The position numbers and the translations under genes are program-made. The notes below the pieces were generated by a model that was given only the letters and a program-made list of their open reading frames with translations, ran no database searches and was not told the origin of the DNA. A stretch of DNA of 26,630 nucleotides, taken from assembly GCA_965246715.1 (NCBI GenBank), contig CBDFFH010000003.1:1-26630 (forward strand), given 5' to 3'. Below are positions 3,105 through 26,630 of the stretch, in pieces (the stretch's first letter is position 1; each line of letters starts with the position of its first letter). Source of the DNA: Chamaesiphon sp. Lineage in GTDB: Bacteria; Cyanobacteriota; Cyanobacteriia; Cyanobacteriales; Chamaesiphonaceae.

Positions 3105-3132
3105 GTACTGACTCACCTGCCTGGTGAGTCAG
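2617..3132. repeat. Array of GTGAGTC(AG)/(CT)GACTCAC repeats in both orientations; candidate replication origin or iterons inside the rep 3' end
   Basis: About 14 exact GTGAGTC/GACTCAC copies: tandem 2617-2643 and 2713-2730, inverted 2688-2696, 2752-2779 and 2850-2865, one at 3021, and a palindromic pair at 3108-3132. Confidence 0.75.
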
Positions 3133-3140
3133 GATCTCAA

Positions 3141-3236
3141 GCAGGTTTTAGCGATAGCGGTGACTGAATGAGGCGGACACAAGCAGGTCAATACCGAAGC
3201 TAGTATCTTCGTCCGCCTCATCAGTCAAAAACCTGC
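3141..3236. terminator. Extended stem-loop between the convergent rep and mob genes
   Basis: Nested inverted repeats GCAGGTTTT/AAAACCTGC, TGACTGA/TCAGTCA and ATGAGGCGGAC/GTCCGCCTCAT. Confidence 0.5.
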
Positions 3237-3258
3237 CGCTCCGCAGGGCATGAAAGTC

Positions 3259-4953
3259 CTACATCGATAACCCTCGATACTGATGTCGTTCTTCCTCTTC
3301 CTCCTCCTCATAATCCAGATCGATAGTGACTGGAACCGTAACTGATGGAGATGAAATTTCCAACTCCATCGCCCCAGCTAAATAAACTTGCAGCTCTTCC
3401 CCCCAACTCCCAGACTCCGGCAACTCATACTCCACCTGCCCTGGTAAATTACTCAACCGAGCATCTGTCGCCACCACCACATCCACCCGCTCCAACTCAT
3501 CCCCAGGCAGCCACCCCCCCTCATGCCCCACCAGCAGTAACGTATTCCGTTCCTCAGCCTTGAGCGTTGTATAAGCCATCGCCTCCAACACATCCTCTAG
3601 CACCACCACCAGATCGATCGCGCCCTGACGTGGAGCTTGAAAATAACACCATCCCCCCGTCAACTTCGAGCCATCGATCGTCATCGACCGCCGAATCAGC
3701 TTCGAGTCATTCGCTAACTCCTCCATACCCAGATCGATCGCTACAGCCCCCGTCACCCGCTCCTCAAAATCCCGATACAGACAAATCAACCTCCCTTCTT
3801 CATCTGCATAAATTAACCCCTGATCGTGCAACCGCTCGACTAACTTAGTAGGTAACTGTCTAGCCTTAGTAAGATTGTCCTTAACCTCACCCCACTTATC
3901 CCGCTCCGATCGCGGTGGGATAAATTCACTAGGAAGCTGCTCGGTAACAAGCTGACTTACCTGCTGATTAACTAACCCAATTGTGGCAGCAGCTCCAAAC
4001 CTATCATTCAACCAATAAGCCGCACCAATCAGATTGGTAGAGCGCGTCTCCATCACCAGATCGAGCGGCTTTATCTGTTTGTCGAATCCCTCTGGTGGTA
4101 ATCCCAACTCACATGCCACCCGTGCGAGGGGGATCGGGGCTTCTGGCGTACTTAAAGACCGATTTACCTGAGATTGTACCTTCAAAGCCTCTTGAGTCTG
4201 CTCCAGCCTCTCTGAGAGTAAATCTCGTTGGTCGGCTACATATTTCAATCGTCGCTCTAGTTCCTGGTGGTCTTTTTGCATTTGAGCGTAAGCTATCGCT
4301 CGCGCTTGAACTGCGGAAAGATCGTTGAGATCTAATTCCTGACTAGCAGAATTGACCACCGTATAGTAATCCTTAACAGTCGTATGTTCTGCTCGGCTAT
4401 TCTTCACCCCCCGTTCTAATCCCAGATGTTGAGTAGCTGCTGCATAAGAGTCCTGAAAAGCAAACATCTTTGCTCGACCACCAAAAATCTTCTTACAATT
4501 AAGTTGACCGTTTTCATCAGTCGGTACCAAATAAGCATGAATGTGAGGAGTAGCTTCATCCAGATGCAGTTCGGCTCTAACGATCTTGTCCCCATACTCC
4601 CGCTGCAACCAGTCCTGACTAGCCTTCGCCCAACTATCTAATCGATCTACCTGGTAATCTCCATACTTGCTTGGGTCATCGGGTCTAAAATATTCAGGAG
4701 AAGCCGTAAGTAGAATCTCGACAGCATAGACAGCATCTGGTCGAATCTTCCGCCTTTGTTCGACAGAGTGAATCTTGTTGTGGACTACATCACTCAAAGG
4801 TAAATCGAGATCGTCATTGTGAATTAGGGTCTGGTTATCTTCAAGCTTAGAGCGATCGGCATTAGGTGTCTCTCGACCTCTAGAGACGTGCATCCCACTT
4901 CCCCCCAGGTTGGACTGTTTGAGCTTGGCAATACGAGCGACAGCGTAGGGCAT
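3259..4953 (-). CDS. mobV: MOBV family relaxase (Mob/Pre plasmid recombination enzyme)
   Basis: N-terminal YAVARIAKLK, H-x-x-R motif (HVSRGRETPNAD), EILLTASPEYF, HUH motif LHLDEATPHIHAYLVP and FQD...LERG. Confidence 0.92.
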   Translation of the reverse strand: MPYAVARIAKLKQSNLGGSGMHVSRGRETPNADRSKLEDNQTLIHNDDLDLPLSDVVHNKIHSVEQRRKIRPDAVYAVEILLTASPEYFRPDDPSKYGDYQVDRLDSWAKASQDWLQREYGDKIVRAELHLDEATPHIHAYLVPTDENGQLNCKKIFGGRAKMFAFQDSYAAATQHLGLERGVKNSRAEHTTVKDYYTVVNSASQELDLNDLSAVQARAIAYAQMQKDHQELERRLKYVADQRDLLSERLEQTQEALKVQSQVNRSLSTPEAPIPLARVACELGLPPEGFDKQIKPLDLVMETRSTNLIGAAYWLNDRFGAAATIGLVNQQVSQLVTEQLPSEFIPPRSERDKWGEVKDNLTKARQLPTKLVERLHDQGLIYADEEGRLICLYRDFEERVTGAVAIDLGMEELANDSKLIRRSMTIDGSKLTGGWCYFQAPRQGAIDLVVVLEDVLEAMAYTTLKAEERNTLLLVGHEGGWLPGDELERVDVVVATDARLSNLPGQVEYELPESGSWGEELQVYLAGAMELEISSPSVTVPVTIDLDYEEEEEEERHQYRGLSM

Positions 4954-5007
4954 AGGGTCAGAATCTACAACGTAGCTAGGGAACAGCCCCGTAGGGCGAA
5001 GGAAGCT

Positions 5008-5062
5008 TTTATTTGAGCGTTAGCGTCCCGAAGGGCAAATAAAGGTGTACTGAGTACACTAA
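5008..5062. promoter_or_regulatory. Candidate MOBV oriT
   Basis: Just upstream of mobV. Inverted repeat TTTATTTG (5008-5015)/CAAATAAA (5036-5043) lies next to the hairpin GTGTACT-G-AGTACAC (5045-5059). The minus strand reads TAGTGTAC, reminiscent of pMV158-type nick regions. Confidence 0.5.
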
Positions 5063-5357
5063 TACCCTTCGCTACCCACTCTAATCCATGATACCCACTA
5101 ATCCTGGTATGGTTGCTATCCTACTAATCAGTGCCAAGTCAGTACCCATATCCTGACTACCTACTAGCAATAAATTGAATGGATAGATTGAATAGGTTAA
5201 GTAGGTACACTAATACCCTTCGCTACCCACTCTAATCCATGATACCCACTAATCCTGGTATGGTTGCTATCCTACTAATCAGTGCCAAGTCAGTACCCAT
5301 ATCCTGACTACCTACTAGCAATAAATTGAATGGATAGATTGAATAGGTTAAGTAGGT
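5054..5357. repeat. 151-bp tandem duplication
   Basis: 5054-5204 is repeated at 5205-5355 with no mismatch seen by eye. Confidence 0.9.
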
Positions 5358-5510
5358 TAAATAGCCCAAAGGAATTAGATGCGGTAAATGGATAGATTAA
5401 TGATTGATAGTTTAAATCAACGAGATGGGTAAGCTAACTAGGACATAAAGCTGATGAGGACACGCAACCGATTTCGTTATACTAAATCTATCCTTTAGAC
5501 TCAAGCTCTT

Positions 5511-5960
5511 ATGCCCAAAAATATCATGATTCCCAAAGCAGCGATTGATGAGACGATCGCTGCCTTTAGTGAGTTACCTGCTAAACAACCATCTAATTAT
5601 CCGCTCAAAGAAGCGATCGAACGCATCCTCCCAGCTATTAATGGCTTGGTTAAAAAGGGCTATAACCTCGATGAGATTTGTAGCTTACTCGCTCAGAAAG
5701 AGATTATCGTTACTAGTTCGAGACTCAAGCAGTATCTGAGAGATTTCGACAAGTCTCATCCTAAACAATCTCGAAAACCTCGCCTTCCTGTAGCAACCAC
5801 AGTTCCTGCTCTAAGTCCGGCAAATAATGAAGATGAATCTAAAACCAAAGTGACTTCTAAACCTCAGGCGACCCCTAAGCCTGAAGTTACTAAACCTGCG
5901 ACTAATCCCGATAAATCCTATAAGTCTCCGCCTAAACCTGGAGCCGAACAATTCAAATAG
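5511..5960 (+). CDS. Hypothetical mobilisation-associated DNA-binding protein (helical N-terminus, Pro/Lys-rich tail)
   Basis: 149 aa ORF divergent from mobV and first in a compact three-gene operon. KKGYNLDEICSLL...SRLKQY is an HTH-like segment. Confidence 0.6.
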   Translation: MPKNIMIPKAAIDETIAAFSELPAKQPSNYPLKEAIERILPAINGLVKKGYNLDEICSLLAQKEIIVTSSRLKQYLRDFDKSHPKQSRKPRLPVATTVPALSPANNEDESKTKVTSKPQATPKPEVTKPATNPDKSYKSPPKPGAEQFK

Positions 5961-5972
5961 TGAAAGAACAAT

Positions 5973-6692
5973 ATGCGGATACATCTAATTGATGGTGAGA
6001 AAGGTGGCGTAGGTAAATCCTGGTTGGCGTTTGTGATGGCAGAGTATTTGAGGTCTAAACTGATTCAGTTCTATCTCTTTGCCGCCGATCGTAGTAACCC
6101 TACTGCTGCTAGTCGCTACAAGGATAAAGAACGGTATGCTGAGTTCTATGATGATTCGGTTCACTATACCCTGTTTAGTGAAAATATTAAGAAAATTGAC
6201 GAACCAGATGTGTTGTTAGAGATGGCAATCGAACGACCGATCGTACTAGATCTCCCCGCTCAGGTTTACTATCCTCTGACATCCTGGATTGAAGAGAAAG
6301 ATATCTTCGAGCTAAGTAAAGCAAATCAGATTGATTGGGTGCGATGGTTTGTTTGTAATGGTGAGGATGAATCGATCCAGCTCTTGATCTCTTCAATGGA
6401 GTTCTATAAACACCAGCAAACGGTGTTAGTCAAGAATTGGGGGCTTTGTGATAATTGGGACTATTTTGATGGTCACGAACAGCTACAAGCAACCATTAAA
6501 AAGCATCGGATAACTGTCATCGATTTTCCTAAGTTAGCTGATAGTAAACGGATTGCGATCAATGCAAAAAGATGGACTTTTGACGAGGCAAGAGAGTTAG
6601 GTCAGTTTGGATTGGTGGGAAAGAGTGAGATTTATAAGTACACGGAAAAGGCTTATCAGGTACTGGCATCTACCAAACTTTTGGAGGTCTAA
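5973..6692 (+). CDS. MobD-like/ParA-superfamily P-loop NTPase (mobilisation accessory)
   Basis: Deviant Walker A GEKGGVGKS, D-x-S-N-P and IVLDLPA motifs; typical context next to cyanobacterial MOBV relaxases. Confidence 0.7.
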   Translation: MRIHLIDGEKGGVGKSWLAFVMAEYLRSKLIQFYLFAADRSNPTAASRYKDKERYAEFYDDSVHYTLFSENIKKIDEPDVLLEMAIERPIVLDLPAQVYYPLTSWIEEKDIFELSKANQIDWVRWFVCNGEDESIQLLISSMEFYKHQQTVLVKNWGLCDNWDYFDGHEQLQATIKKHRITVIDFPKLADSKRIAINAKRWTFDEARELGQFGLVGKSEIYKYTEKAYQVLASTKLLEV

Positions 6693-6695
6693 GTT

Positions 6696-7460
6696 ATGGC
6701 TGTGGATTTTAATGGCTCTAGTAAGAATGCGGAGATGGAGTATATCGATGTCCTGCTAGAGGGGAAGTCGAATGAGTTTAAGGGGCGGGTGTTAGCGTTT
6801 ATCCGTAAGTATAAGATTGATGCTAACGATCCGACGTTTATGTTGTTGGTAGCGATTGGTGGATTAGATACTGCTTTGGTGGATTTGCCCCAGGCTCTGG
6901 CTAAGGGTCAGAAAGGGATGTCTGAGGAGGTGAAGCGGATTGAGGGTGAGTTTGGTAAGCTGTGGCGGACTGCTATTACCGCTTTGAAGGCGGAGATTGA
7001 GGAGGTGAAGACATTACACCAGTCACGAGATCGAACAGCTACTACTAGGGAGGGGGAGTTAAATCGGAAGATTGCTGCTGTCGAGCGGGCAATGTCTGAT
7101 TTAGATATTAATGTCAAGGCTCTGGAGGGGATAGAGTCGCGAATCAAGGCTGATTATTTGGGCTTGGCTAGAGGGCTAGTGGCATATAAGCAGGAATTGG
7201 CTACTGGTCTGGATAAGCTGGAGCAGCGGGATTCGGTTAAGATTTGGAATTTTAATAAGTGGAGGGCGGAGCATTGGCTGTTGTTCGTTGGTACTGTACT
7301 TCTGGGGTTGTTATTTTTCATCGATTCATGGCGTGTCCATTCGGAACTCGATCGGGTGAGTGAGAAGCTCGATCGGGTTTTGACTCATGTGGACTATAAC
7401 GCTACTAAGTTGGGGCGGATTGAGAAGCATTTGGGTGTGAAGAAGCCTAAAAGTGAATAG
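6696..7460 (+). CDS. DUF6753-like coiled-coil protein with a C-terminal transmembrane helix
   Basis: N-terminal LLEGKS..FK.RVL...IDANDPTFMLLVA motif, long coiled coil, hydrophobic WLLFVGTVLLGLLFFI; 3 nt after the preceding gene. Confidence 0.6.
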   Translation: MAVDFNGSSKNAEMEYIDVLLEGKSNEFKGRVLAFIRKYKIDANDPTFMLLVAIGGLDTALVDLPQALAKGQKGMSEEVKRIEGEFGKLWRTAITALKAEIEEVKTLHQSRDRTATTREGELNRKIAAVERAMSDLDINVKALEGIESRIKADYLGLARGLVAYKQELATGLDKLEQRDSVKIWNFNKWRAEHWLLFVGTVLLGLLFFIDSWRVHSELDRVSEKLDRVLTHVDYNATKLGRIEKHLGVKKPKSE

Positions 7461-7578: not shown

Positions 7579-10500
7579 TTAGCCCTGACAGAGCCAAGCA
7601 CCCCAGAACATCGGATGTTGGAGAGGATGTTCGGCACCTTGCAGATGGGTGATTTTAGCGTCAATCTCTGCCAAAATAATTCGTCCTTGCTCGATCGATA
7701 GTAACTCTGCACGGGTAATATTACGGATGTAGGATTGTGCCTGTTGGAGACAGATCGCGGCTGGTTGTCCGGCTCCGCCTTGATAATATTCAAAGAATTT
7801 ATCCATCAGCAGAATCGAAGTCTGGACTGGAACATCCCACAGGCTGACAATCAGCGTGGCAACTCCGGCAATTGCTAGAGCGCGTTTGAGTCCGAATACC
7901 CCTTCACCTTGGCGGACGGAACCCGTGCCGCTACTACAGGCAAGGAGGATGGCGATCTGCGTCCCCCACAAGTCTAGTTCCAGCAGATCGCGGGCGGTGA
8001 ATAAACCACCTTCTAATTCTGATGGGAGTTCGCCACCTGCGAGACTGGTGTTGAAACCAGCTAGGGCTAAACCCGCATCCCGCATCGGATCGGGATTGTC
8101 GCCGCCTTCTGGATCTAAACCATGTAGTCCGTGGGTGGCAATCACTAGATATTGAGGCGATCGCAATTGGCGGAGATTAATCGCCTGAGCGTCATTACCC
8201 AAATGGGGTTTAATGCCCAAGGATTGAGCGATTTTTTGAGCGAGGGGTTCGGTTTGGGGGAGGGGGGTGAGTTTATTACTGAGAGCGGACATCGAGCCGG
8301 ATTTTTCAAGCTCGGTAGTGGGTAGGGGTGCGATCGCGCGAGTGGGAAAATCGTAGTTAGGATTAGCCGCAATCGTACCTACACTGGCGGGTGCAGGTGG
8401 CTGTGGGCGGGTGCGAAGATCGCGGCTGGCAGAAACATAGCGAATCGATAATCGATCGCTTAAAATCCCATTTTCGACGGGTAAAATTCCGAAGGGGACG
8501 AGGTTTAAATCGCCATCGGGGGCAAAAATGACTTCTGTGGAGTGAGTCGGGAGATCGAGGGGATCGAAGATGGTTTGACGCAGATCGATCGCCTGGGCTT
8601 GATAAGGAGCAAGCAGTCGCGCCGGATCTTTCCGTGGGGCACGATCGTACTTACCCATTGACTCGAAACCAGGTAAATCGCTGGCGACTTGGCGAAATTT
8701 AGTAATCAGTTCGTCGATTTCTGCGGCGGCACCGAGTTTGACTAATTTAATTCCGCCCAATCCTTCATGGGTGAGGATGAAGGCGAGATAGTGGGGTTCT
8801 CCTTTCTTTCCAGTAACTAAATCGTAGAGATCGAAGCGAACGAAATCGACGAGGGTAGCACCAGCAGGGACGAGGAGATTAATTGCTTGACGATCGATCG
8901 TAGTTTCCATCAACTCGGCGCGAGGGACTTTAGCCGCGATCTCTTTTTCTGCTCGATCGAGTCGGGTTTGGAGGCGGTTAACCTGTTGTTGGTAGGCTTC
9001 GATATTCTCTGTCGGTGGTGTTTGGGTAATTTGGTGGAGTTGTTGGCGCAGTTGTTGCCGTTCGGCGGCTAGTTGTTGTAATTGAAGATCGTCACTTCGG
9101 GAGATGGCAGCACTCAGGGCAATTTCTACGGCAGTCGCGATCGATTTCCACAGATAGATGACTTCAAAAGCTTGAGCGATTGATTCGGAGTCATCAGCTA
9201 AATATTGCCAGAGACAGGAGAGTAAATAATTAATTGTGCTTTGTCGGCGATCTCGATAGGATAGTCGTTCTAACTCTGTTTTCCCTTGAAAGCGATCTGC
9301 TAAAACTTTAATATCTACCCGTGCAGCGTCAGCTAAATGCGTTCCAGCCTCCGTGAATCTTTCTTGTTTAACTAGTAAGAAGGCATAATTTTGATAACTA
9401 GCGACCAACTCTGGATGTCCCCGATCTACAAATAACTGGCAACGGATAATTAGAGATTTATGCAAAAAAGGTTCAGCTTCTACCAATTTTCTTTGGTCTA
9501 TATAAAACAGAGCTAAATTATTCAGACTGGCAGCAAGTGTTTCATTCGTATTATTTTCAAATAACTGGAGACAGATATCTAGAGACCTTAGCAAAAAAGT
9601 TTCGGCTTCTGTCCATTTTCCGTAGGATTGGCATAATCTTGCCAAATTGTTCAGACTGATAGCGAGACCACTATTGGCCTTACTACCAAACAACTGACGA
9701 AAGATAGCTAAAGATTCTAGCAAAAGAGGTTCGGCTTCCATCCATCGTTCTTGTTTTGAATACAATTGTGCTAAATTGCTCAGAGTATTGCCAAAGTCGT
9801 TATTCACATTATTACTAAACAACTGACGAAAGATAGCTAAAGATTTTAGTAAAAGGGGTTCGGCTTCCATCCATCGCTCTTGTTGTGAGTACAACTGTGC
9901 CAAATTGTTCAGACTGATGGCGAGGTCTTTATTTACTTTTTCCCCAAATAACTGATGACGAATACTTAGAGATCTTAGTAAAAGAGGCTCCGATTCTTCC
10001 CATCTTCCTTGTCCTAAATATAACTGTCCCAAATTATCCAAACTGGTAGCAAGGTCATTATTAATAGTTTTGCCAAATAACTGGTGACGAATATTTAAAG
10101 CTTGTAGTAAAAGAGGTTCAGCGTCTATCAATCGCCCTTGGGATAAGTACAAGGCTGCTAAATTATTTAGACTGGTGGCAAGGTGATTATTAATAGTCTT
10201 GCCAAATAGCTGGCGACAAATATTTAGAGCTTCTAGTAAAAGAGGTTCAGCTTCAACCCATCGCTTTTGATATTGATACAAGGCTGCCAAATTATTCAGA
10301 CTGGTCGCGAGATCGTTATAAAGTGTTTTGTTAAACAACAAGCGACGAATAATGATTTCTAATAATATAGGTTCAGCCAACAATTGGCGACGAATATTTA
10401 AGGCTTCTAGTAAAAGAGGTTCAGCTTCTATCAATCGTCCTTGGGATGAGTACAAGGTTCCCAAGCTATTTAAACTAATAGCGAGGTCATTATTGGGGAT

Positions 10501-10695
10501 ATTGCCAAATAACAGGCGATGAATACTTATTATGGATTTTAGAAACAGAGGTTCAGCGTCTTCCCATCTTCCAAGGAATAAGTATAAGTATGAGTATGCC
10601 AAATTATTCAGAATATTGGCAGAATTGTTATTAGGGTTGGGGAAAAGATATCGAACAATAGTCAAAAATTGTTTAGCAATTGATAGCTTCATCAA
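7579..10695 (-). CDS. TPR-repeat CHAT-domain (caspase-like) protease; the true start is probably ATG 10756, with a frameshift near 10680
   Basis: About nine 44-aa TPRs (LATSLNNLAALY...GR..EAEPLLL.AL.I), then a CHAT domain with APDGDLNLVPF, catalytic His in IATHG, catalytic Cys in LLACSSG, plus SLWDV and HPMFWGAW. Confidence 0.92.
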   Translation of the reverse strand: MMKLSIAKQFLTIVRYLFPNPNNNSANILNNLAYSYLYLFLGRWEDAEPLFLKSIISIHRLLFGNIPNNDLAISLNSLGTLYSSQGRLIEAEPLLLEALNIRRQLLAEPILLEIIIRRLLFNKTLYNDLATSLNNLAALYQYQKRWVEAEPLLLEALNICRQLFGKTINNHLATSLNNLAALYLSQGRLIDAEPLLLQALNIRHQLFGKTINNDLATSLDNLGQLYLGQGRWEESEPLLLRSLSIRHQLFGEKVNKDLAISLNNLAQLYSQQERWMEAEPLLLKSLAIFRQLFSNNVNNDFGNTLSNLAQLYSKQERWMEAEPLLLESLAIFRQLFGSKANSGLAISLNNLARLCQSYGKWTEAETFLLRSLDICLQLFENNTNETLAASLNNLALFYIDQRKLVEAEPFLHKSLIIRCQLFVDRGHPELVASYQNYAFLLVKQERFTEAGTHLADAARVDIKVLADRFQGKTELERLSYRDRRQSTINYLLSCLWQYLADDSESIAQAFEVIYLWKSIATAVEIALSAAISRSDDLQLQQLAAERQQLRQQLHQITQTPPTENIEAYQQQVNRLQTRLDRAEKEIAAKVPRAELMETTIDRQAINLLVPAGATLVDFVRFDLYDLVTGKKGEPHYLAFILTHEGLGGIKLVKLGAAAEIDELITKFRQVASDLPGFESMGKYDRAPRKDPARLLAPYQAQAIDLRQTIFDPLDLPTHSTEVIFAPDGDLNLVPFGILPVENGILSDRLSIRYVSASRDLRTRPQPPAPASVGTIAANPNYDFPTRAIAPLPTTELEKSGSMSALSNKLTPLPQTEPLAQKIAQSLGIKPHLGNDAQAINLRQLRSPQYLVIATHGLHGLDPEGGDNPDPMRDAGLALAGFNTSLAGGELPSELEGGLFTARDLLELDLWGTQIAILLACSSGTGSVRQGEGVFGLKRALAIAGVATLIVSLWDVPVQTSILLMDKFFEYYQGGAGQPAAICLQQAQSYIRNITRAELLSIEQGRIILAEIDAKITHLQGAEHPLQHPMFWGAWLCQG

Positions 10696-15612: not shown

Positions 15613-15721
15613 GCATGTAAATCCTATTCATTCCAACCGATTAAGCTGGAGAAGGCAAGATCATTTAAAGCCACTCCAGTTCTCCAGCTCTCTCGATAAA
15701 TAGGATTTACATGCTATTTCG
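15605..15721. mobile_element. MITE-like element of ~117 bp
   Basis: 23-bp terminal inverted repeat CGAAATAGCATGTAAATCCTATT plus inner AGCTGGAGAA/TTCTCCAGCT. Its last 52 bp are repeated at 16309-16360. Confidence 0.65.
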
Positions 15722-16308
15722 AGATACCGATGACCCATTTGTTTGACTTTTTTCAACACTTGGATGCCACCATCTCGTTCAGTGATATTGGCTGCTGTCA
15801 CCCATACCCGTAAGACTAAGCCGAGTGTGTCTACTGTCACAAACCGCTTTCTGTGATTTGCTTACCTGTTATGCCTCACTGACCATTGCGGCACTTTTGA
15901 CACTTTGGCTATCGATTGCAGCCTCTGATGGGCTGGGTTGACGCTCTTGTTCTATTCTTACCCATGCTCTCAACCGATCGTGGATTTTGACCCATGTTCC
16001 ATCCTTGCGCCAGTCTCGAAAATAAGTATATACCGTCTGCCATGCTGGGAAATCTCCTGGTACGCTCGCCAACGACATCCTTCACACAGTAGATAGAAGA
16101 TTGCGTTGATTACCTCTGCGATCTCCACCTCTCGTGGACGACCACCTGGCTTTGGTGCTGGAATCATCCCACTAATTAATTCAAATTGGTCTGTGGTCAG
16201 GTTACTAGGATATGCTTTACTCATTCTGCTCACTTAGCACTACTCATTATCTATCTGTAGTCTATACCGAGTGAGCTTTTTTACCAACTGACTTTTCAAA
16301 CATCCTCT
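15722..16308 (-). mobile_element. Truncated, frameshifted IS5-family (IS1031-like) element
   Basis: Left end AGAGGATGTTTGAAAAGT (16308-16291). Transposase fragments MSKAYPSNLT...GGRPREV...GCRWR, PGDFPAWQTVYTYF...IDSQSVK and RKRFVTVDTLGLVL are broken by frameshifts; the 3' half is missing. Confidence 0.9.
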
Positions 16309-16872: not shown

Positions 16873-18003
16873 ATGCTTCGTTTTTTTAAGTTTGTTGGTT
16901 TTGCTATCCTGGGGTTTCTCTACCTAATTTTCTTGGCAGCTAATCCCCAGGCGGCACTTACATGGAGTGCGATTTTCATTGTCCTATATTTGATCGACCG
17001 AAAGCAGATAGCAGCAAAGCAGCGTAAACAGGCGATGATTCTTGCCCAAAAGCAAGAAAAGGAGGCAGCAAAGCAGCGTAAACAGGCGATGATTCTCGCC
17101 CAAAAGCAAGAAGAGGAGGCAGCAGAGCGGCGTAGACAGGAGGCTCTAGTACGTGAAGCGGCGGAGCAACGTAAGCAAGCGATTGTCTTAGCACGACAAC
17201 GCAAAGATTTATATGAATACGATCCTTCTATTCAGGAATCGGATAGACGCTCGACAAAAAATATGTGGGAAAATCCCGCACTATGGGCAGAAGCAATCGA
17301 TGCCCGTTATGGAGTTGCCAAAAAAAATGTACTAGATGCGGAGTTAGTACTTAATGATGATGTAGAACAGTTCGATCGATACAGACGACAATTGCAAGTT
17401 GAATTAATACCTAAATATGAGGCTGCAATTAGACCATTTATCGAGGATTTACAGCTTAGAGATGAGGATATTCCAACGCCAAGAGAATTAAAAATTGCGA
17501 TTGATTTTGTTTATCCTAGTAATTTGCTGCCTAATGTAATTCATCAAGATTTAGCAAGTTTGTCTCAAACTTTTGGGAATAGCCTCAGAAATGTATTGCA
17601 GGGCAAAGATATTATGAAGCTTCAGAAAGGAGATATGACTTCTATTGCTATTATGGCAGCATTCGCTGCAATTTCTTACCTGTATACCTTATCTACACAG
17701 CGTACAAAACTTGAGAAAGTACAAGCCGATGTCGATAAGCTCTGCGAACAAATTAGCGGAGCGATCAAAACCTATGGTAGAGCCTCGGAGGAAATTAAAC
17801 ATTTAAAATCAGTCCACCAAGTTGCCATCAATTATATGATGCGTTATCTTGACATTGCGCTCGAACTATCCACCCAAGGAAAAACATTCTCCGATCTCCA
17901 AGCAGCAGAGCGAAAGGCGATTGAAACTTGTTATCGGGGTGGGCAGTCATTAAAGCAGATAATGAAACAAGACGTAATCAAACCTATTGAAAATACAAAT
18001 TAG
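16873..18003 (+). CDS. Membrane-anchored coiled-coil hypothetical protein
   Basis: GGAG RBS; two N-terminal TM segments, 18-aa tandem repeats and an internal hydrophobic helix (IAIMAAFAAISYLY). Confidence 0.75.
   Translation: MLRFFKFVGFAILGFLYLIFLAANPQAALTWSAIFIVLYLIDRKQIAAKQRKQAMILAQKQEKEAAKQRKQAMILAQKQEEEAAERRRQEALVREAAEQRKQAIVLARQRKDLYEYDPSIQESDRRSTKNMWENPALWAEAIDARYGVAKKNVLDAELVLNDDVEQFDRYRRQLQVELIPKYEAAIRPFIEDLQLRDEDIPTPRELKIAIDFVYPSNLLPNVIHQDLASLSQTFGNSLRNVLQGKDIMKLQKGDMTSIAIMAAFAAISYLYTLSTQRTKLEKVQADVDKLCEQISGAIKTYGRASEEIKHLKSVHQVAINYMMRYLDIALELSTQGKTFSDLQAAERKAIETCYRGGQSLKQIMKQDVIKPIENTN
17011..17118 (+). repeat. 54-bp in-frame tandem repeat (2 near-identical copies plus degenerate copies)
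   Basis: Encodes AAKQRKQAMILAQKQE(K/E)E twice. Confidence 0.85.
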
Positions 18004-18009
18004 AAAAAT

Positions 18010-18480
18010 ATGAACGAAGAAATTGTCCCGAATAAAATTTATGCCGAACTCGTTAATAATCCACAAGTTGCAGAGTATGTTGACTTAGCATTTCAGCTAG
18101 CTCCATTGGCTAACCAAGCACTTGAATTAGCTTTTCAAGCTCTTCCATTGGTTAACAAGGGATTGGATTTAGCAGAACAACTGGATCGAGAAAAGACAAC
18201 TCGATTAGCAATTCAAGAAAATGCCGATCTTCAACGTAGAACGATCGAGCGTCGCATGACGCAGCTTGATGCTGAATTGGAGGCAGATTTAGAGAACAAC
18301 AAAAACGTTGTTGCTACGAGTATGCGAGTTTTCGAGAAAATGGTTGAAAACGGTCATATCGACCAAGCGATGATTTTACACGAACGAATTATTAGCAAGC
18401 TCTCAGGACGTGCGAGTATTGCCGCTGATAAATTCAATCAGAACAATCCTGATGGAGAGGTTAAATTTTACACTACTTAG
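18010..18480 (+). CDS. Helical coiled-coil hypothetical protein
   Basis: 156 aa, 6 nt after the preceding gene; internal LAFQ.APL.N repeat. Confidence 0.7.
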   Translation: MNEEIVPNKIYAELVNNPQVAEYVDLAFQLAPLANQALELAFQALPLVNKGLDLAEQLDREKTTRLAIQENADLQRRTIERRMTQLDAELEADLENNKNVVATSMRVFEKMVENGHIDQAMILHERIISKLSGRASIAADKFNQNNPDGEVKFYTT

Positions 18481-18677
18481 GAGTTGAACGGTATAGAGCA
18501 AACTCGAATAGCATTAGATGGAAGCTGCGTGGTTGCATTTTACAATCAAATTCTCATGGCTTGCACTGAATCGCTCGCGTCTAATTTGCTCTGTCTAGAG
18601 GGACAAACGATCGAAACGTTATATTTTAAGTAATTCAATGCTTTAGGCGAGAGGCTTCGCCAACAACATAAAATTGT

Positions 18678-20339
18678 ATGGCTAACAGAGACTACTTCGA
18701 TGGTATGGATCTAGGTGTGGGTTACAATCCGCTCACTGGTGCGGCTTCCACTTCCTGGGTAGATTTTGGAGAACTGACAACAGCGGGTGGGCAAACTGGG
18801 CAAACGGCAGAGTTGCTATTCAAACGGGTGACTTCGAGCGCAGAACTGAGCAAGGTGTTGGGGATGGATGCCGAAGTCAACCTGAGTGCTTCCTGGTTTA
18901 AGATCGGCGGTTCTTTCAAAGCCAAGGCTTGCACTGAGTCGAGCCGAAAAATCAACGAGTATTCTACTTTCTCGGTGCTGTATGTGAAAGTACGGGGGAT
19001 GGCGCAAAATCTTCGCGATGTCGATCTCAAACCCCAGGCGATCGATTTCATTACTAATAAGGGGCTGGAGGCGTTTTTTCGACGAGCTGGTTATGAATAT
19101 ATATCTGGCATCATTCCTGGCGGTGAGTTCATCAGTACGATCGAGATTATTTCCAACGACATCGAAACCAAGGAAAAAATCGATGCTCACCTCAGTGCCC
19201 AAATCTCCTGTAGCACTGTAATTCCTAAGATTGGAGCGATAGACGCGAATGCCGAACTCAAATCTAAGTTTGCAGAGTTAGCTAAATACAATAACGTGCG
19301 GATTGAAGCGCGATGCTATCGCAAAGGCGGCGTGGGGGCAATTTCGACTACTCCCGAAGAAGCTCTGGAGTACGCTGTCAATTTTCCAGCTTCCGTGCAA
19401 CAGTCGGCGGATATCTTACAAGTTATTTGCAAGCCCTACCATGAATTAATATCTTTCCCTGACGAGTTTGACACGATCGCGGTAGAACGCCAACAACGGG
19501 TGTTGAGAAGCCTCTGGGATCGCTACCAGCAAGTCACCAAATCGATCGCGGATGTGGAATATATTCTCCAGTATCCGATCCAGTTTGATGGGGTGGAAGA
19601 AGGCATCCTCAGAGCGGGTAAACAACAGCTAGAACAGCAGTTAGACGAGATTGCCGATCGAGCGATGAATTATGCCAAGAATCCCACGCAGATTCGGGTT
19701 GAAGGTAGTGATTTTGCAACTATTCTACTATCCTTGCCACCCCGTAAAATCACGCCCCAGCCCGAACCGCCGCTTCAGACTGAAGATTCGATCGATGCAG
19801 TTGCGCTCGAATCCGCTCAAGGGATAGATTATCGCCAACTGCGGGATTTACTCAAAGCTGAAAAATGGCAAGAAGCAGACAAAGAGACACGAAAAGTAAT
19901 GCTCAAAGCTGTCAATCGAGAAAGTGAAGGCTTTGTGGATGTTGATAGCCTAAAAAAATTCCCATGTCAGGACTTGCGTACAATCGATCGTCTTTGGGAA
20001 ACTGCGAGTGTAACTGTCTCGGCGATCGATAATGAGGAAGCCCAACGAGCGATTCAAATCGTTCAAGGCTTAACTCGCTGTCTCAACGAAGGCGATATCT
20101 ACGCCGGACGCGTGACGCGAATTATTCCGATCGGTGCCTTCGTGGAGCTACTACCAGGTAAAGAAGGGATGATCCATATCTCCCAACTGGCCGATTATCG
20201 TATCGGGAAGGTTGAAGATGAAGTCGGCGTTGGCGATGAAGTGATCGTCAAAGTTCGTGAGATCGACAATAGAGGTCGCGTTAATCTGACTCGATTGGGC
20301 ATTCATCCCGATGAAGCTGCTGCGGCGCGACGAGGATAA
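18678..20339 (+). CDS. Chimeric protein: MACPF/CDC-like N-terminal domain + coiled coil + partial GUN4 domain + PNPase C-terminal (KH end/S1) segment
   Basis: [10 protein letters not shown] and [19 protein letters not shown] (MACPF-signature-like). GUN4 start [14 protein letters not shown]...WQEADKET...[13 protein letters not shown] (19803-19997). Then [37 protein letters not shown]...[16 protein letters not shown], which matches the cyanobacterial PNPase C-terminus as I recall it. Confidence 0.75.
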
Positions 20340-20499
20340 CTCGATCGTCTCGATGTGTAGGTTGGGTATAACAAACATGAAACATAGTAGCTCAACCACC
20401 TTCATAGTCATCTTGCACGATCGTTTGAGATGTATCGATCTATGTCTATCCATAGCAAAGCGTCGAATCTGCCAAATCAATTGTTCGATTGCGAATAAC

Positions 20500-21045
20500 T
20501 GTAGCAACCTGCAATACTAAATCCTTGAGACCGCAATCATCGCTTTTTTGAGACCGAATTAACTGCAACTATAAGTGCAGTTGAGACCACATTAACTGCA
20601 ACTGAGACCGAATTAGTTGCAACTGAGACTGCAATCATCCAGTTGAGACCACATTAACTGCAACTATAAACTTAATAATTTAGATCGAGTCTCAGACTCA
20701 GATTCACCATCCGATCGACCTGCTAAGTTAATAAACTGGTTGCCATCGATCGAATCTTGACTTAGATAAAATTACCGAGTTGTTTGCCCTGCGAAATGGC
20801 GGCTGAACGCTTTGTATCAACTTAATTGGCAGCAGTAAAGAAAACGGACGTTTTCTTTACTGCTGCCCGCCCCAATTTATAGTTGCAGTTAATTCGGTCT
20901 CAAATTTAGTATTGCGGGCTGGTTGCATTTAATTCGGTCTCAGTTGCAGTTAATTCGGTCTCAAGCGACCGGATAGTTGCAGTTAATGTGGTCTCAAAAT
21001 TGCGATGATTGCAGTCCTGAGCGATTAGTATTGCAGGTCGCTACA
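20500..21045. mobile_element. Non-autonomous mini-transposon-like element with ~172-bp inverted arms and TGT...ACA termini
   Basis: Ends TGTAGCAACCTGCAATACTAA and TTAGTATTGCAGGTCGCTACA (1 mismatch). Each arm has four TGAGACC(GA/AC)ATTAACTGCAACT-like repeats at equivalent positions. Confidence 0.65.
20828..20867. terminator. Perfect 18-bp stem hairpin in the core of the mini-element
   Basis: GGCAGCAGTAAAGAAAAC-GGAC-GTTTTCTTTACTGCTGCC. Confidence 0.5.
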
Positions 21046-21046
21046 G

Positions 21047-21074
21047 GTAGGGGCAATTCATGAATTGCCCCTAC
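21047..21074 (+). repeat. GTAG-family REP-like palindrome
   Basis: GTAGGGGCAATTCATGAATTGCCCCTAC is a perfect palindrome. Confidence 0.7.
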
Positions 21075-21138: not shown

Positions 21139-22146
21139 CTAAACCAAATCTGCCAACTTACTAGAAACCTTCCCCTGCACATTTTTCCGGCGGTCGTCAT
21201 AGATCGTCAAAGTTTCCAACTTCGCATGACCGCTCAACAACCTCGCATCCCGCACATTACCATCACTCAAATCCAAATAAGCCGTAATCGAACTATGTCT
21301 GACTCGATGCGGCGACATTCTTTTCTCAACATCAGCCCCCTGCGCCAATCGCTCCACCAAATAACCCAAACTTCGCCCCGATAACCGCTTGCCATAAGAA
21401 CGATTATCCAAAGCAATAAATAAAGGCTCACTCGGTTTTCCAGCCCTGACGAGCGACCATTCATTTAAAGCAGCTCTGGTTTTTACAGCCAAATCGATCG
21501 CAATTTTTTGAATCTTTCCCTTCCGCATAATCCATAACTTATCTGACTGAAAATCCTCAGTATTTAGAGCCGTAACTTCACTTCTTCGCAGCGCATTATC
21601 CCACAACAATCGCATAATGGCATAATCCCGCTTACCCCCAATTGTCTCGCGATCGATCGCCTCAATCATCACTCGATAAACATCCGGCTCCACCCCAGAA
21701 GTATCCCGATACACCTCCACCTTTAAACTCGCCACATCCTCCAAACTAAACGCACACTGACTTAATTTCCGCGCATGATTGACCAATGATTTAATCGCCG
21801 CCAATCGCGTATTAATCGTATTTGGCGATAGATTCAGATCTAACAATCGCGCTCGATAACTCAATACCACCGCAATCGCCTGTTCGCTGGGTAAATTCAA
21901 AAATTCGCGAATCTGGTGAGGGTTCACCTTAACTCCCGTCATCTGCACAAAAAAGTCATTCAGAGCCGAAGCGTAAGTCCGTTTGGTATGTTCGGAAATC
22001 TGAAGTTTGAGAAATTCCGCCCAAATATTATCGTCAGCCACCAACGATCTGGCAATCGAGCCGATTGTCGATTTTGTAGTGTCCTGAAGTGAAGCTCCCT
22101 CTGGATCGATCGGTAAGTTAACGAGTGCAAAATTACTATCGGTCAC
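21139..22146 (-). CDS. XerC-like tyrosine recombinase (plasmid multimer resolvase type)
   Basis: SAM-like domain (SEHTKRTY, SPNTINTRLAAIKS); catalytic motifs RD.AI...ALRRSEV, RKGK, HRVRHS and GHAKLETLTIYD. Confidence 0.93.
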   Translation of the reverse strand: MTDSNFALVNLPIDPEGASLQDTTKSTIGSIARSLVADDNIWAEFLKLQISEHTKRTYASALNDFFVQMTGVKVNPHQIREFLNLPSEQAIAVVLSYRARLLDLNLSPNTINTRLAAIKSLVNHARKLSQCAFSLEDVASLKVEVYRDTSGVEPDVYRVMIEAIDRETIGGKRDYAIMRLLWDNALRRSEVTALNTEDFQSDKLWIMRKGKIQKIAIDLAVKTRAALNEWSLVRAGKPSEPLFIALDNRSYGKRLSGRSLGYLVERLAQGADVEKRMSPHRVRHSSITAYLDLSDGNVRDARLLSGHAKLETLTIYDDRRKNVQGKVSSKLADLV

Positions 22147-22405: not shown

Positions 22406-23293
22406 ATGATTGGAAGTAGGGAACGATCTAAATATCCCTTTCGCTCTAGTCAGTCCTCCATGTCGGCGCAAGTCCCCACAGGCACGTTCACAGTGACTAA
22501 TCTCAATCCCCTCACCGCCACACCACCGATCGAGGTGCCATTAAAAAATGCGCCCCTGGTCAGAGCGATCGCCCAAGTCCGGTTTCCACCGATTCTATCG
22601 ATCGAGCAACAGGAGTTTGTCGGTTCCTTCCAAGAGGCAATTCGCGAAAAATACCCGATTTTACAGCCCGTCCAAACCCCTGGTCTACTATTTAACCCTG
22701 AAGGTGCGATGCTTGCGCCTACACCTCAAACCATTTGGTGCTTTTGGAGTGCAGATCGAACTTGGCGGATTTCCTTAGCAAGCAGTACCGTGGCGATCGA
22801 AACGACTAAATATACCAGTCGCAGTGACTTCCTAGGACGCTTAGAAAGTTTGCTCGCGACCCTCGATCGCTGCTTTCACCCGTCACAGATCGAGCGGTTT
22901 GGATTGCGCTATATCGACCGAGTAGTGGGTCGAGAGTTGCAAGATATATCCCTACTGATTAGACCGGAAATGGCTGGCATTGTCTCTAGCGAACTTCAAG
23001 CATACATCCATCAAGTTTTGCACGAGTCACTATTTATCTTGCCGTCGGGAGCGGGACAGATCGCGGCGCGATGGGGTACGATTCCTGCCAATGAAACTTA
23101 TGACCCCTATGAAATCGAGGCTATTGGCGAACGGAGTTGGCTGCTCGATTTAGATATATCAACGGTGAAAGAGCAGGAATTTAAGGTTGAATCCCTGATG
23201 CAACAAGCGCACAATTTTACCGAGCGACTTTATACCTTCTTTCGCTGGGTGGTAAATGATGAATTTCTCAGACGCTATGGGGGTGAAGTATGA
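22406..23293 (+). CDS. TIGR04255 family protein (the real start may be the GTG at ~22493)
   Basis: LKNAPLVRAIAQVRFPPI, YTSRSDF, IERFGLRYIDR, WLLDLD and FFRW motifs. Confidence 0.8.
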   Translation: MIGSRERSKYPFRSSQSSMSAQVPTGTFTVTNLNPLTATPPIEVPLKNAPLVRAIAQVRFPPILSIEQQEFVGSFQEAIREKYPILQPVQTPGLLFNPEGAMLAPTPQTIWCFWSADRTWRISLASSTVAIETTKYTSRSDFLGRLESLLATLDRCFHPSQIERFGLRYIDRVVGRELQDISLLIRPEMAGIVSSELQAYIHQVLHESLFILPSGAGQIAARWGTIPANETYDPYEIEAIGERSWLLDLDISTVKEQEFKVESLMQQAHNFTERLYTFFRWVVNDEFLRRYGGEV

Positions 23294-23898
23294 GTACTCT
23301 TTTAGACAAAACGACAGTAATTCGGGACACTGGCTATCGCTATTGGTTAGCTCCCCTCAAGATGACGACTAGTGGGGTCAAACTACCCACGACGATCTCG
23401 CCAACACAACCCGCAACTCCACCAGTCCGATTACCACAGCAAGCAGTTAATGAATTAAGAAAGTTGAGTGGGTTAACTTGGGAGCAACTGGCTTGTCTGT
23501 TTGATGTTTCCCGCCGCAGCGTGCATTTCTGGGCGAGTGGGCAGCCGCTAGCTGTAGCCCATGAGGAAAAGTTGAATCGAATTTTAGACGCGGTGCAGTA
23601 TATCTCGCTAGGTAGCGCGAGTCTCAATCGCAGTCTGTTAATGGGACTTGGTAAGGACGGTAGATCTTACCTAGAACTACTAGCAGCGGGGGAATATGCG
23701 GCAGTCAAACGGCTGCTCGGTGTTGGCAATGCACACACCAAACCGCAATTAGCACCATTAGCTCCAGCAGCGGACATAACGCTCGTGCTACCCAATCCAG
23801 CGGATCTGGTGGATGCCCTGCAAGATCCGATCCATCGCGAGGTTGGCAAGTCAAAATCGGCAAAAAGTGTGAGGAGTCGAAAGCCAAGTGACGATTAA
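23290..23898 (+). CDS. XRE-type HTH protein (candidate antitoxin or regulator)
   Basis: ELRKLSGLTWEQLACLFDVSRRSVHFWASG helix-turn-helix; ATGA overlap with the upstream gene. Confidence 0.8.
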   Translation: MSTLLDKTTVIRDTGYRYWLAPLKMTTSGVKLPTTISPTQPATPPVRLPQQAVNELRKLSGLTWEQLACLFDVSRRSVHFWASGQPLAVAHEEKLNRILDAVQYISLGSASLNRSLLMGLGKDGRSYLELLAAGEYAAVKRLLGVGNAHTKPQLAPLAPAADITLVLPNPADLVDALQDPIHREVGKSKSAKSVRSRKPSDD

Positions 23899-24742
23899 CG
23901 AACCTAACAGTTGGATTCCAGATACCGATGCCGCTTTAGAACAGTGGTCTCAAGGGGATTGTACGATGGGAGCAGATTGTTGGTTCGTGACTCGCTTCGA
24001 TCCGCAACGTCCGCTAACACCCGATGCGGCGGACGTTGTAGCTATATCCGCCGAAGCTGACTTAACCGAATCCTCAGTCAGCGGTTTTGTGGTGGTTACG
24101 CAAACCTGCGATCTCGTCCGCTCTTGTGCGGAACGTCCCTTCGTTGAGGTCGCTCCGTTGGTCGCAGTTGACGACCAGTATTTACAAGAGATCCAACGCC
24201 TGAAAAGACCTCGCTATGCCTATATTGCTGGAGTTGCCGAATTTAATCTCGTAGCGGATTTAGATCGGGTGATGACGGTCGAAAAGGCTGTTGTCGCCAG
24301 ATGGGAAAGAATATCTGGCTGTCGAAGCGATGCGGATACTCGATTGCTGGGAGAAGCATTAGCCCGAAAACGCAGTCGATTTGCTTTCCCCGATGACTTT
24401 AATGAGTTCGCTAAAGATCTGCAAAAGCGAATGCAGAAGCGGCATGATAAAGCTGATGATGATGGTGTGGGTTTACGCGCCCTCCGTGAAATTAGAGTAC
24501 GAGCCGCACCAGCTTGGGATGCGGAGCAAGTAGAACTCATGTTTTGGTTCATCCGCGCCGAGGCAGATGTTCGCTTTAAAAATAAAGCATGGGATGAATT
24601 ACTAGGTGAGTGGCTGAAATTACTGCCGCCATCTGGTCGGTTTAGTTCGGTAGATGGAGCGGTAGTATCGCTAGACGATATGACAGCTCAGGAATATCTG
24701 CAAAGCGACCGACTCGATCTCGATCGTCTCTCTTCACATTGA
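23888..24742 (+). CDS. Conserved hypothetical 'QGD...VVVTQTCDL' protein (candidate toxin)
   Basis: WSQGD, VVVTQTCDLVR, VEVAPL and RKRSRFAFPDDF motifs; 11-nt overlap with the upstream gene. Confidence 0.7.
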   Translation: MTINEPNSWIPDTDAALEQWSQGDCTMGADCWFVTRFDPQRPLTPDAADVVAISAEADLTESSVSGFVVVTQTCDLVRSCAERPFVEVAPLVAVDDQYLQEIQRLKRPRYAYIAGVAEFNLVADLDRVMTVEKAVVARWERISGCRSDADTRLLGEALARKRSRFAFPDDFNEFAKDLQKRMQKRHDKADDDGVGLRALREIRVRAAPAWDAEQVELMFWFIRAEADVRFKNKAWDELLGEWLKLLPPSGRFSSVDGAVVSLDDMTAQEYLQSDRLDLDRLSSH

Positions 24743-25885: not shown

Positions 25886-26502
25886 CTTCACTATTGTGGG
25901 CAATAGGATCTTTATAAATTTGCAAAGATGACTCTCAACCCAATTTATATAAAAATTGCGGATAGAGCAAAATTCTCAATCACAACTCCCGATGCTGCTT
26001 AGCATAGACACTAGAGAGTTAAACATTATGTTTAACAGAATGTTTTTTTGCCTTTTAGCTGATTTAGATTATAATAGTGAGAATAATTTTTGCTGCTCAA
26101 TAATCAATTAAAAATCGATTAAATGAAACAATTTATTCTCAAAATAAATTAATGCAAAATAGATTAAAGATACACATAAAAATAGCCGCCTAGTTACCTA
26201 GAGCGACATTGAGGAATTGAATAATTAATTTTAATACGCTTGTTTCGCCTGCTTCAACAGGTTGAGAAACAAAAAAGATCGAGACCAAAAGTAACTCGAT
26301 CTTAGCGAAAATGAAGCTAACTGTCCATCCCCCAATCAGCTCAATTTAACGATCGAATCTGGATATTTTTGCTCAAATCGTTACTACAGCTATGTTTGAC
26401 CTATTTTTGTCAAGCCCAGCGTACTAGCGATCTTGTAGCTATTTATGTAGTTTTATGATTTTTATGTAACTAGACGGCTCCTACCCACCATCAGGAGCCA
26501 TC

Positions 26503-26630
26503 ATGACCGCATTAATTAACACATTGTCCGCATTGCCTGAAGCTTGGGTATTGACTCCAGTTAATGGTAAAAAAGCCCCATATACCAACGACTGGCAAAG
26601 AATTTCGGTTACTCGTGAGGCGATCGCCTC
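26503..26630 (+). CDS. N-terminal fragment of the Rep primase-polymerase (continues at the window start)
   Basis: AGGAG RBS; MTALINTLSALPEAWVLTPVNGKKAPYTNDWQRISVTREAIA is open to the window end. W.LTPV.GKK.P...DWQ is the usual Prim-Pol N-terminal motif. Confidence 0.8.
   Translation, partial: MTALINTLSALPEAWVLTPVNGKKAPYTNDWQRISVTREAIA

Follow-up and report, generated by a model that had tools for sequence, protein, structure and literature searches.

The window analysed here, a stretch of 26,630 nucleotides, carries a chimeric ORF, P0001 (18678..20339, + strand), which is a real hybrid: probably a recent and accidental swap gave a MACPF-GUN4 gene a new tail from the 3' end of pnp, the gene for polynucleotide phosphorylase (PNPase), and the S1 domain in that tail would be a passenger. 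The frame is intact over 553 aa, interrupted by no stop and no frameshift, and the tail keeps a complete S1 domain together with the native stop; the single open frame reported in an earlier reading of this DNA, made from the sequence alone, was confirmed. From N- to C-terminus the protein comprises a MACPF-like domain, a helical hairpin, a linker, half of a GUN4 domain and the C-terminus of PNPase. Pfam domains were placed at aa 119-260 (MACPF), aa 379-444 (GUN4) and aa 470-538 (S1), and the three-part make-up given in the sequence-only reading (MACPF-like region, truncated GUN4, PNPase end) is upheld by Pfam, TIGR03591 and a MACPF fold model. Of the wider interpretation offered there, the MACPF/CDC fold, the truncated GUN4 and the in-frame pnp end held, whereas a role as RNA sensor or decoy and an implied crossover at CGATCG words were not supported. 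Taken by itself the fusion is moderately interesting, since the passenger reading is favoured; it is also a domain-shuffling event in which both parents (a GUN4-tailed allele and a same-genus pnp) and both joints are visible. The nearest named matches to both halves of P0001 are Chamaesiphon proteins (P0003 and P0248), which makes Chamaesiphon the likely genus.

The left junction lies at 20009/20010, a codon boundary between residues 444 and 445, which agrees with the proposal that a cyanobacterial pnp contributed its 3' end in frame. Of the 23 same-genus genomes with a match, 22 have pnp alignments that begin at 20009 or 20010. Both junctions were sought in sequencing runs, of which 20 were listed and 3 contained at least half of the sampled words; the contigs of six (X1, X2, X3, X4, X7 and X9) were read, and X4, X7 and X9, which hold a small share of the words, served for junction reading only. 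Run X1 has a contig that crosses the left junction (18300-20240) and another that crosses the right junction (20219-20536), both with 0 differences, and a contig of X2 (19810-20318) crosses the left junction with 10 differences. These two runs come from a single study, from separate samples taken in different years. A check of coverage across position 20000 or so, suggested to expose a chimeric assembly, thus found contigs from two runs that span the junction. The uninterrupted allele was seen in X3, a run of another study, where a contig matches 18300-20009 with 29 differences and an 18-nt gap, continues for 347 other letters and rejoins the window at 20390; the original flank (20390..20507, +) follows this rejoining point with 3 differences (X3 record 17). 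Contigs of X4 and X9 also depart from the window at 20009, that of X9 into a normal GUN4 continuation, and contigs of X2, X3 and X9 join at 20010 from normal pnp upstream sequence. Since X3 departs at 20009 and rejoins at 20390, the change is a two-sided swap in which 380 nt (330 coding and 50 downstream) replaced 347 nt. Three proteins, P0324, P0002 and P0009, have an N-terminal part near-identical to that of P0001 and a full GUN4. A metagenome scan with P0009 for close DNA of the uninterrupted allele returned 20 GUN4 loci, all unrelated.

The captured end of pnp (20010..20339, +) encodes aa 445-553 and the stop, and comprises the KH end with a linker (which we take to be about 25 aa), the S1 domain and the native C-terminal tail. 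TIGR03591, the PNPase model, matches aa 442-539 at model positions 589-686 with E 1e-28 and 100 bits, against E 1e-17 for the best ribosomal S1 model, and the solved cyanobacterial-type PNPase 8ZAW matches the tail at E 2e-55. The origin of this tail of about 110 aa in the C-terminus of PNPase, rather than in another S1 protein, was therefore correctly recognized from the letters. A full PNPase has two RNase PH domains, KH and S1 and scores above 525 bits with TIGR03591, and the match here is that of a fragment; positions 3-72 of the 74 in the S1 profile PF00575 are present, as in a PNPase-type S1. Compared with PNPase, the tail lacks the RNase PH core and a full KH domain, has five private residues and sits on a plasmid-like circle. 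The stop is followed by a captured non-coding flank of 50 nt (20340..20389, +), delimited by the X3 joint and by alignment, which contains the start of a common cyanobacterial repeat. This repeat start also aligns just 3' of the pnp stop in the same-genus copy G007:C146, and its 11 nt occur in 107 copies in the host genome. An orphan KH end and 50 nt of non-coding flank are as expected of a random fragment.

The donor was likely an unsampled lineage of the host genus and not the present host. In amino acids, the captured piece is 89-95% identical to same-genus PNPase ends, and its best same-genus DNA match is 89%. In a tree it falls inside the same-genus pnp clade (100/99 support) as sister to G007:C146 (97/84), with only 318 nt in the tree and 14 of its 29 inner branches open. 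Three of the 26 same-genus genomes have no match to this pnp end, and the piece has no match among the 72,556 plasmids of PLSDB at E 1e-15. A lineage other than the host is likely because the piece is 84.8% identical to pnp of the closed same-genus genome G011, whereas the flanks of that gene are 92-97% identical between G011 and the host, a comparison that takes the G011 gene for the unassembled host gene and the contig of the window as correctly binned. The host assembly holds no full pnp, and its only PNPase-specific match is the captured piece. The G011 pnp flanks match host contig C47 at its end and host contig C46 at its start, and a 4.4 kb gap between the two contigs holds pnp, so that by its sequence context the host gene is judged to be unassembled, not lost; loss of host pnp, or its transfer to the plasmid, was rejected because the locus is an assembly gap. 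A comparison with pnp including the host copy, with dN/dS, had been suggested, and it succeeded for same-genus pnp but not for the host copy, for which G011 was substituted.

The lack of a full pnp elsewhere in the assembly would also be expected if the fusion were an assembly chimera, joining the missing pnp end of the host to a plasmid gene, and X1, which may be the source sample, shares its study with X2. This explanation is very improbable. Separately assembled contigs cross the left junction (X1 and X2) and the right junction (X1), the host pnp position is a plain gap between two contigs, the piece and the expected host allele differ too much, and two errors would be required to return to the plasmid flank. 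The chimera is thus largely refuted.

The CGATCG words at 19985 and 20023, to which the sequence-only reading drew attention, do lie on either side of the left junction, but the crossover role implied for them is not supported, since both are kept in the hybrid and both are present in the parents. The left word forms the GUN4 I-D-R codons and is also found in 2 of 3 GUN4 loci examined; the right word is present in 7 of the 21 chromosomal pnp copies. The crossover falls 19 nt after the left word and 13 nt before the right one, and such a pairing is fairly uncommon: CGATCG occurs within 25 nt on both sides of only 161 of 20000 random genome points. Neither CGATCG nor GCGATCGC occurs at the right joint (20389/20390). 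HIP1 recombination, with a crossover inside a shared CGATCG or GCGATCGC, was rejected because both words are kept and the crossover lies between them; the words are inherited from the parents and do not mark the crossover point. At most 1 nt of exact sequence is shared at the left joint. How the pieces were spliced is a guess. Likely the event was an accidental double illegitimate recombination, in which 380 nt of a pnp end, probably from another lineage of the genus, would have replaced 347 nt of the GUN4 tail; stray single-stranded pnp DNA, arriving by transformation or from a former host, may have been spliced in at both ends. Such a two-sided swap resembles SPDIR, described as the replacement of a resident segment by a heterologous DNA segment through two illegitimate joints (10.1101/2024.07.02.601687). 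In that description, SPDIR produces microindels in Acinetobacter and is guided by microhomology, whereas here the segment is 380 nt and the left joint has no exact microhomology. If this is what happened, a plasmid gene of conflict type can pick up a new tail that derives from a housekeeping gene in a different lineage.

The window is one entire contig of a 55-contig assembly. Profile scans identified genes for a primase-polymerase/DUF927 protein, a Mob_Pre relaxase, ParA and an XerC-like protein. Because the primase gene runs from one end of the contig into the other, with 2 nt implied to be missing between them, the contig is a nearly closed circle of 26.6 kb, likely a plasmid. The upstream ORF (16873-18003), considered as a partner of the fusion gene, had no relatives in 200 genomes of the order or in PLSDB and none that was clear in the Atlas, and the DNA of this ORF and the next was present in 0 of 38 family genomes. 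Promoter and terminator scans gave matches at chance level only.

On such a plasmid the captured piece might act as DNA, as a homology patch for recombination with the chromosomal pnp of the host, and it may itself stem from such contact; we consider this quite improbable. In the X2 contig across the junction, the 8 listed of the 10 differences fall together at 20255-20294, and positions 20336-20460 are uncovered in X2; gene conversion or a crossover into a different pnp would leave such a pattern. Against this, a stretch of 35-44 nt from 20214 is identical in 5 of the 21 chromosomal copies, and one of 32 nt was seen besides; an assembler could switch paths there, and the 8 letters of X2 fully match no sampled chromosomal copy (6 of 8 at best). 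Since the piece is 85% identical to the allele that the host likely carries, recombination would presumably be weak.

The part of the parent that remains next to the junction is the N-terminal half of GUN4 (19812..20009, +; aa 379-444), which by Pfam covers positions 2-69 of the 141 in the profile. The sequence-only reading was right about the truncation; it placed the end at IDRLW (about 19997), and GUN4-derived sequence continues 12 nt further, to 20009 (residue 444). When the intact relative P0009 was aligned to solved GUN4, the cut was found to follow the helix-4 tryptophan, just after that helix. GUN4 is described as an eight-helix cupped hand whose porphyrin pocket is formed at the 6/7 loop and palm, with contributions from helices 5-8, and changing two residues of the 6/7 loop led to misfolding (PMC1084334). 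Because helices 5-8 and the 6/7 loop are missing, P0001 lacks a complete porphyrin-binding domain and the remnant cannot form the pocket. Modelled from alignment rows of GUN4 only (A5), the half domain had pLDDT of about 80; the S1 part of that model, which had no alignment depth, was below 50, a value uninformative on S1. Another tail alignment (A4) was dropped when GUN4 rows fell on the S1 part.

The N-terminal MACPF/CDC-fold domain (18678..19457, +; aa 1-260) was examined by profile match and by structure, as had been proposed, and has the predicted fold. An AlphaFold model of aa 1-365, built from 126 aligned sequences (pLDDT 90.1, pTM 0.86), shows the bent four-stranded central sheet and two helical inserts by which MACPF/CDC proteins are recognized. 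Foldseek gave 43 matches at E <=0.001, of which all those listed are MACPF, with stonustoxin at the top, and ranks 1-12 of VIA-align are MACPF/CDC chains. The inserts, at aa 52-95 and aa 160-206, are likely TMH1 and TMH2, judging from the model; by a crude measure of whether they are amphipathic enough for membrane beta-hairpins, hydropathy of alternate residues is 0.94 / -1.68 in the second insert and -0.26 / -0.28 in the first. The MACPF consensus is given as Y/W-G-T/S-H-F/Y-X6-GG with a second glycine pair (PMC2954219). P0001 has a divergent form of this motif (19086..19124, +; aa 137-149), in which the G, the Y, the six-residue spacer and the GG are kept at aa 138-149 and positions 1, 3 and 4 differ; its second glycine pair is at aa 217-218. 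Residues G138, G148, G149 and G217 are conserved in at least 90% of the 126 aligned sequences, and the motif of Bth-MACPF is described as diverging in a similar manner (PMC2954219). The Pfam profile PF01823 scores P0001 just below its cut-off (E 6e-4; 20.4 bits vs 21.5), which the close relatives P0002, P0323, P0003 and P0008 pass (21.9-22.7 bits). Among the nearest Atlas clusters with a family, MACPF, MACPF_SNTX or thiol-cytolysin domains occur in 10% to 88% of members. The domain is followed by a two-helix hairpin (19473..19679, +; aa 266-334), assigned from the secondary structure of the model, and by a linker rich in Pro, read from the sequence, to about aa 378.

Because of the MACPF/CDC fold, we infer that the family could form pores. 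In a crude hydropathy test, a signal-like stretch was found in 0 of 57 close relatives, P0001 included, and in 29 of 143 distant relatives; because all 57 lack such a stretch, the MACPF-GUN4/FGE subfamily is likely cytoplasmic. The parent of the hybrid would have been a cytoplasmic MACPF that oligomerises and whose two helical inserts insert as beta-hairpins, and the GUN4 or FGE-type tails of the family may be ligand-sensing or targeting modules. The hybrid would be free of GUN4 control and, if expressed, an inert or unregulated MACPF, in which S1 would have no selected job.

Stonustoxin, a heterodimeric fish venom protein that also contains thioredoxin and PRYSPRY domains, is the top fold match (PDB 4WVM; Foldseek E 4e-8). 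VIA-align placed it at Z 11.9 and rmsd 3.7 with 275 aligned residues, in a span (model residues 1-355) that takes in the helical part; identity is 11%, and a common fold does not show a common target. At the sequence level, the best solved relative is Aeg-L of Alternaria alternata (PDB 9UJ0), which the family profile matches at E 4e-19 over profile positions 15-259; in its pore state it aligns with VIA Z 11.5 and rmsd 11.5 over 265 residues. Aeg-L is described as acting with Aeg-S on airway epithelium (PMC13341504). It differs from P0001 in its tail, structural identity is 11-13%, and the 20 window ORFs scanned included no Pfam match to an aegerolysin-like partner. A C-terminal domain that varies in type likewise follows the MACPF domain in the bacterial MACPF protein Mpf2Ba1 (8B6V; PMC10344926), GNIP1Aa (6FBM), the BSAPs and Bth-MACPF (3KK7). 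Mpf2Ba1 has a profile match at E 2e-5, and all of these apart from BSAP-1 are in the fold match lists. The subfamily of P0001 differs from all four in its cyanobacterial GUN4 or FGE tails, and from the BSAPs and Bth-MACPF, described as exported lipoproteins (PMC2954219, PMC12853789), in having no signal-like stretch.

Bacterial MACPFs are known to occur in cyanobacteria (PMC2954219). The parent family is a cyanobacterial MACPF group, defined by the 57 close matches, with GUN4 or FGE tails. Of the 56 close relatives other than P0001, 36 have a C-terminal GUN4, 13 an FGE-sulfatase domain and 7 no listed domain. In these GUN4 or FGE tails, 49 of the 56 are like the multidomain proteins of cyanobacteria in which GUN4 and FGS domains have been described as common C-terminal partners of diverse effector domains, with GUN4 proposed as a tetrapyrrole sensor (PMC7159879), which for this family is an analogy; in P0001, the GUN4 is halved. 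More distant relatives were sought in a representative library, where 920 matches were found at E <=0.001; 150 were listed, 146 of them new, and 145 were scanned, a 4419-aa repeat protein being left out. Tails among the 145 were PASTA (8), crystallin (5), H-lectin (3), GUN4 (2), ankyrin (2) and Lcl_C (2), with single cases of FGE, LGFP, ChW, AbfB and ricin-B; most had no tail domain. A search for other MACPF-S1 fusions, called for in the sequence-only reading, found an S1 domain in 0 of the 56 close relatives and in 0 of the 145 distant relatives among the matches listed. No second protein with GUN4 and S1 was seen in the best 120 of 7442 matches to the junction region or among 116 short matches. 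On these sequence comparisons, the MACPF-S1 allele is unique among the relatives searched. The relatives are sporadic: a single genome held one among the 26 of the genus, as did a single one among 400 other genomes of the phylum, and a genome collection held 4 loci. Literature searches (MACPF with cyanobacteria, GUN4 and phage defence; pnp/S1 fusions; Aeg-L; Chamaesiphon plasmids) returned titles and abstract openings that describe no MACPF-S1 fusion and no MACPF-GUN4 subfamily. The word 'perforin' is absent from the main text of PMC7159879, whose supplements could list MACPF-GUN4 architectures, and MACPF, perforin, GUN4, S1 domain and PNPase have no occurrence in PMC13069673.

A family that swaps its C-terminal modules this often (GUN4, FGE-sulfatase, crystallin, H-lectin, PASTA, ankyrin, ricin-B, AbfB, LGFP) could have had the hybrid kept by selection, with S1 binding RNA, or else a phage protein directed against PNPase, and thereby triggering or positioning a MACPF pore that kills the infected cell. 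In cyanobacteria, PNPase is described as essential and as a binding partner of RNase E (PMC3964918). The S1 domain is complete, a cytoplasmic protein could reach such ligands, the C-terminal domain of BSAP-1 is reported to drive receptor recognition (PMC12853789), which offers an analogy, and decoy domains have been proposed for cyanobacterial conflict systems (PMC7159879). We nevertheless regard this as unlikely: the fusion is a single allele, the broken half GUN4 and the orphan KH end are still attached, and the relatives stand alone amid unrelated genes in 5 of 5 loci read, with no neighbour gene common to the window in the 4 loci tested. No relative was found in viral contigs among 133 pattern matches, and the literature searched yielded no anti-phage MACPF-S1 protein. 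The only PADLOC match on P0001 (PD-T4-6, positions 295-370) sits on the GUN4 part, and the 17 window proteins include no complete PADLOC system. The broader proposal, that the cytoplasmic MACPF family are cell-death effectors with swappable C-terminal sensors and that the plasmid allele gained from PNPase an S1 sensor of foreign RNA or phage proteins, is slightly more doubtful still. Were the S1 tail to control a pore, P0001 would be an RNA-linked MACPF effector of a kind not found described in the literature searched. The homology patch and the assembly artefact rank below both retention by selection and an accident.

An accident is favoured over a sensor because the fusion is a single allele, near-identical alleles keep the full GUN4, and the tail has an excess of private changes; for the same reasons, the RNA-sensor or decoy role gained no positive support, and the 'recent accidental fusion' that had been offered as its alternative is the best fit. 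Relaxation was assessed from private sites and from pairwise dN/dS. In comparison with 21 same-genus chromosomal copies, 8 bases are private to the captured piece; 5 of these changes are non-synonymous and 3 synonymous, against 8 non-synonymous and 45 synonymous private changes summed over the 21 copies (one-sided Fisher p 0.008, from small counts and from copies that are kin, not independent). In a set of 118 PNPases, four of the five private residues are absent and the fifth is present in 3. Its pairwise dN/dS, at 0.053, is barely higher than that of the others (0.017-0.050). By the private-site counts, S1 is likely a passenger under relaxed selection. Of the private residues, three belong to the orphan KH end and linker and the other two, both conservative, to S1 itself, and these conservative changes also fit continued constraint on S1; counterpoints to accident are the intact frame and the presence of the fusion in samples from two different years. 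One chromosomal copy, that of G007:C146, itself has 4 non-synonymous to 1 synonymous private changes, so that such an excess is not peculiar to the captured piece, and in aa 1-444 of P0001, eight residues are shared with none of the close relatives compared (up to six).

Contig C3, which carries the hybrid MACPF-GUN4-PNPase S1 gene, is a nearly closed circle, since a primase-polymerase gene spans its two ends (window positions 1-62 and 26030-26630) and comparison with the homologues on host contigs C18 and C46 implies that just 2 nt of this gene are absent between them. Also encoded on the circle are a relaxase (Mob_Pre), ParA and a recombinase. C18 carries two copies, at 103-7009 and 22861-29766, of a plasmid backbone related to that of C3; they share 85-88% identity with window 9-7076. 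The spacing of these two copies, about 22.76 kb, suggests that C18 is itself an over-assembled circle. A transposase-like fragment at 15719-16308 is 97% identical to at least six copies on other contigs of the host assembly, a hint that the circle has been resident in this host lineage.

An array of repeats of approximately 23 nt (20478-21067) begins about 90 nt 3' to the right joint of the swap, in which the pnp 3' end replaced the GUN4 tail. It has two long inverted arms of 146 nt that are 79% complementary, and similar arrays are present on host contigs C18, C36 and C53. The array adjoins a gene for a XerC-like tyrosine recombinase (21139-22146) and is likely the target region of this enzyme.

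The left junction of the swap is flanked by two 7-nt words, at 19998-20004 and 20010-20016, which lie 12 nt apart and differ at one base; each parent contributes one of the pair. A simple microhomology crossover would leave a single copy and does not account for the retention of both words. In one (X2) of the two sequencing runs with a contig spanning this junction, differences from the window are clustered at 20255-20294 and coverage is absent past 20336. This pattern represents either a recombinant allele or a path switch by the assembler. The chromosomal pnp end that groups as sister to the captured piece in the tree (contig C146 of the same-genus genome G007, 5626-5943) has four private non-synonymous changes. 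G007 has two pnp copies and 7% contamination.

Immediately upstream of the hybrid gene, on the same strand, are two orphan ORFs of 376 aa (16873-18003) and 156 aa (18010-18480); the product of the longer one has a hydrophobic stretch near its N-terminus. Neither matched any family, and their joint DNA was found in none of 38 genomes of the host's family. For the 376-aa protein, no relative was detected in 200 genomes of the order or in PLSDB, and no clear one in the Atlas.

The circle also encodes a caspase-like protein of the TPR-CHAT type, 1038 aa long (7579-10695, minus strand), for which no counterpart was found at the four related MACPF loci compared. Pore formers activated by proteases are known (10.1101/2025.11.14.688446). 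On the plus strand, three ORFs at 22406-24742 overlap one another; they code for a member of the TIGR04255 family, a protein with a helix-turn-helix and a 284-aa product of unknown kind.
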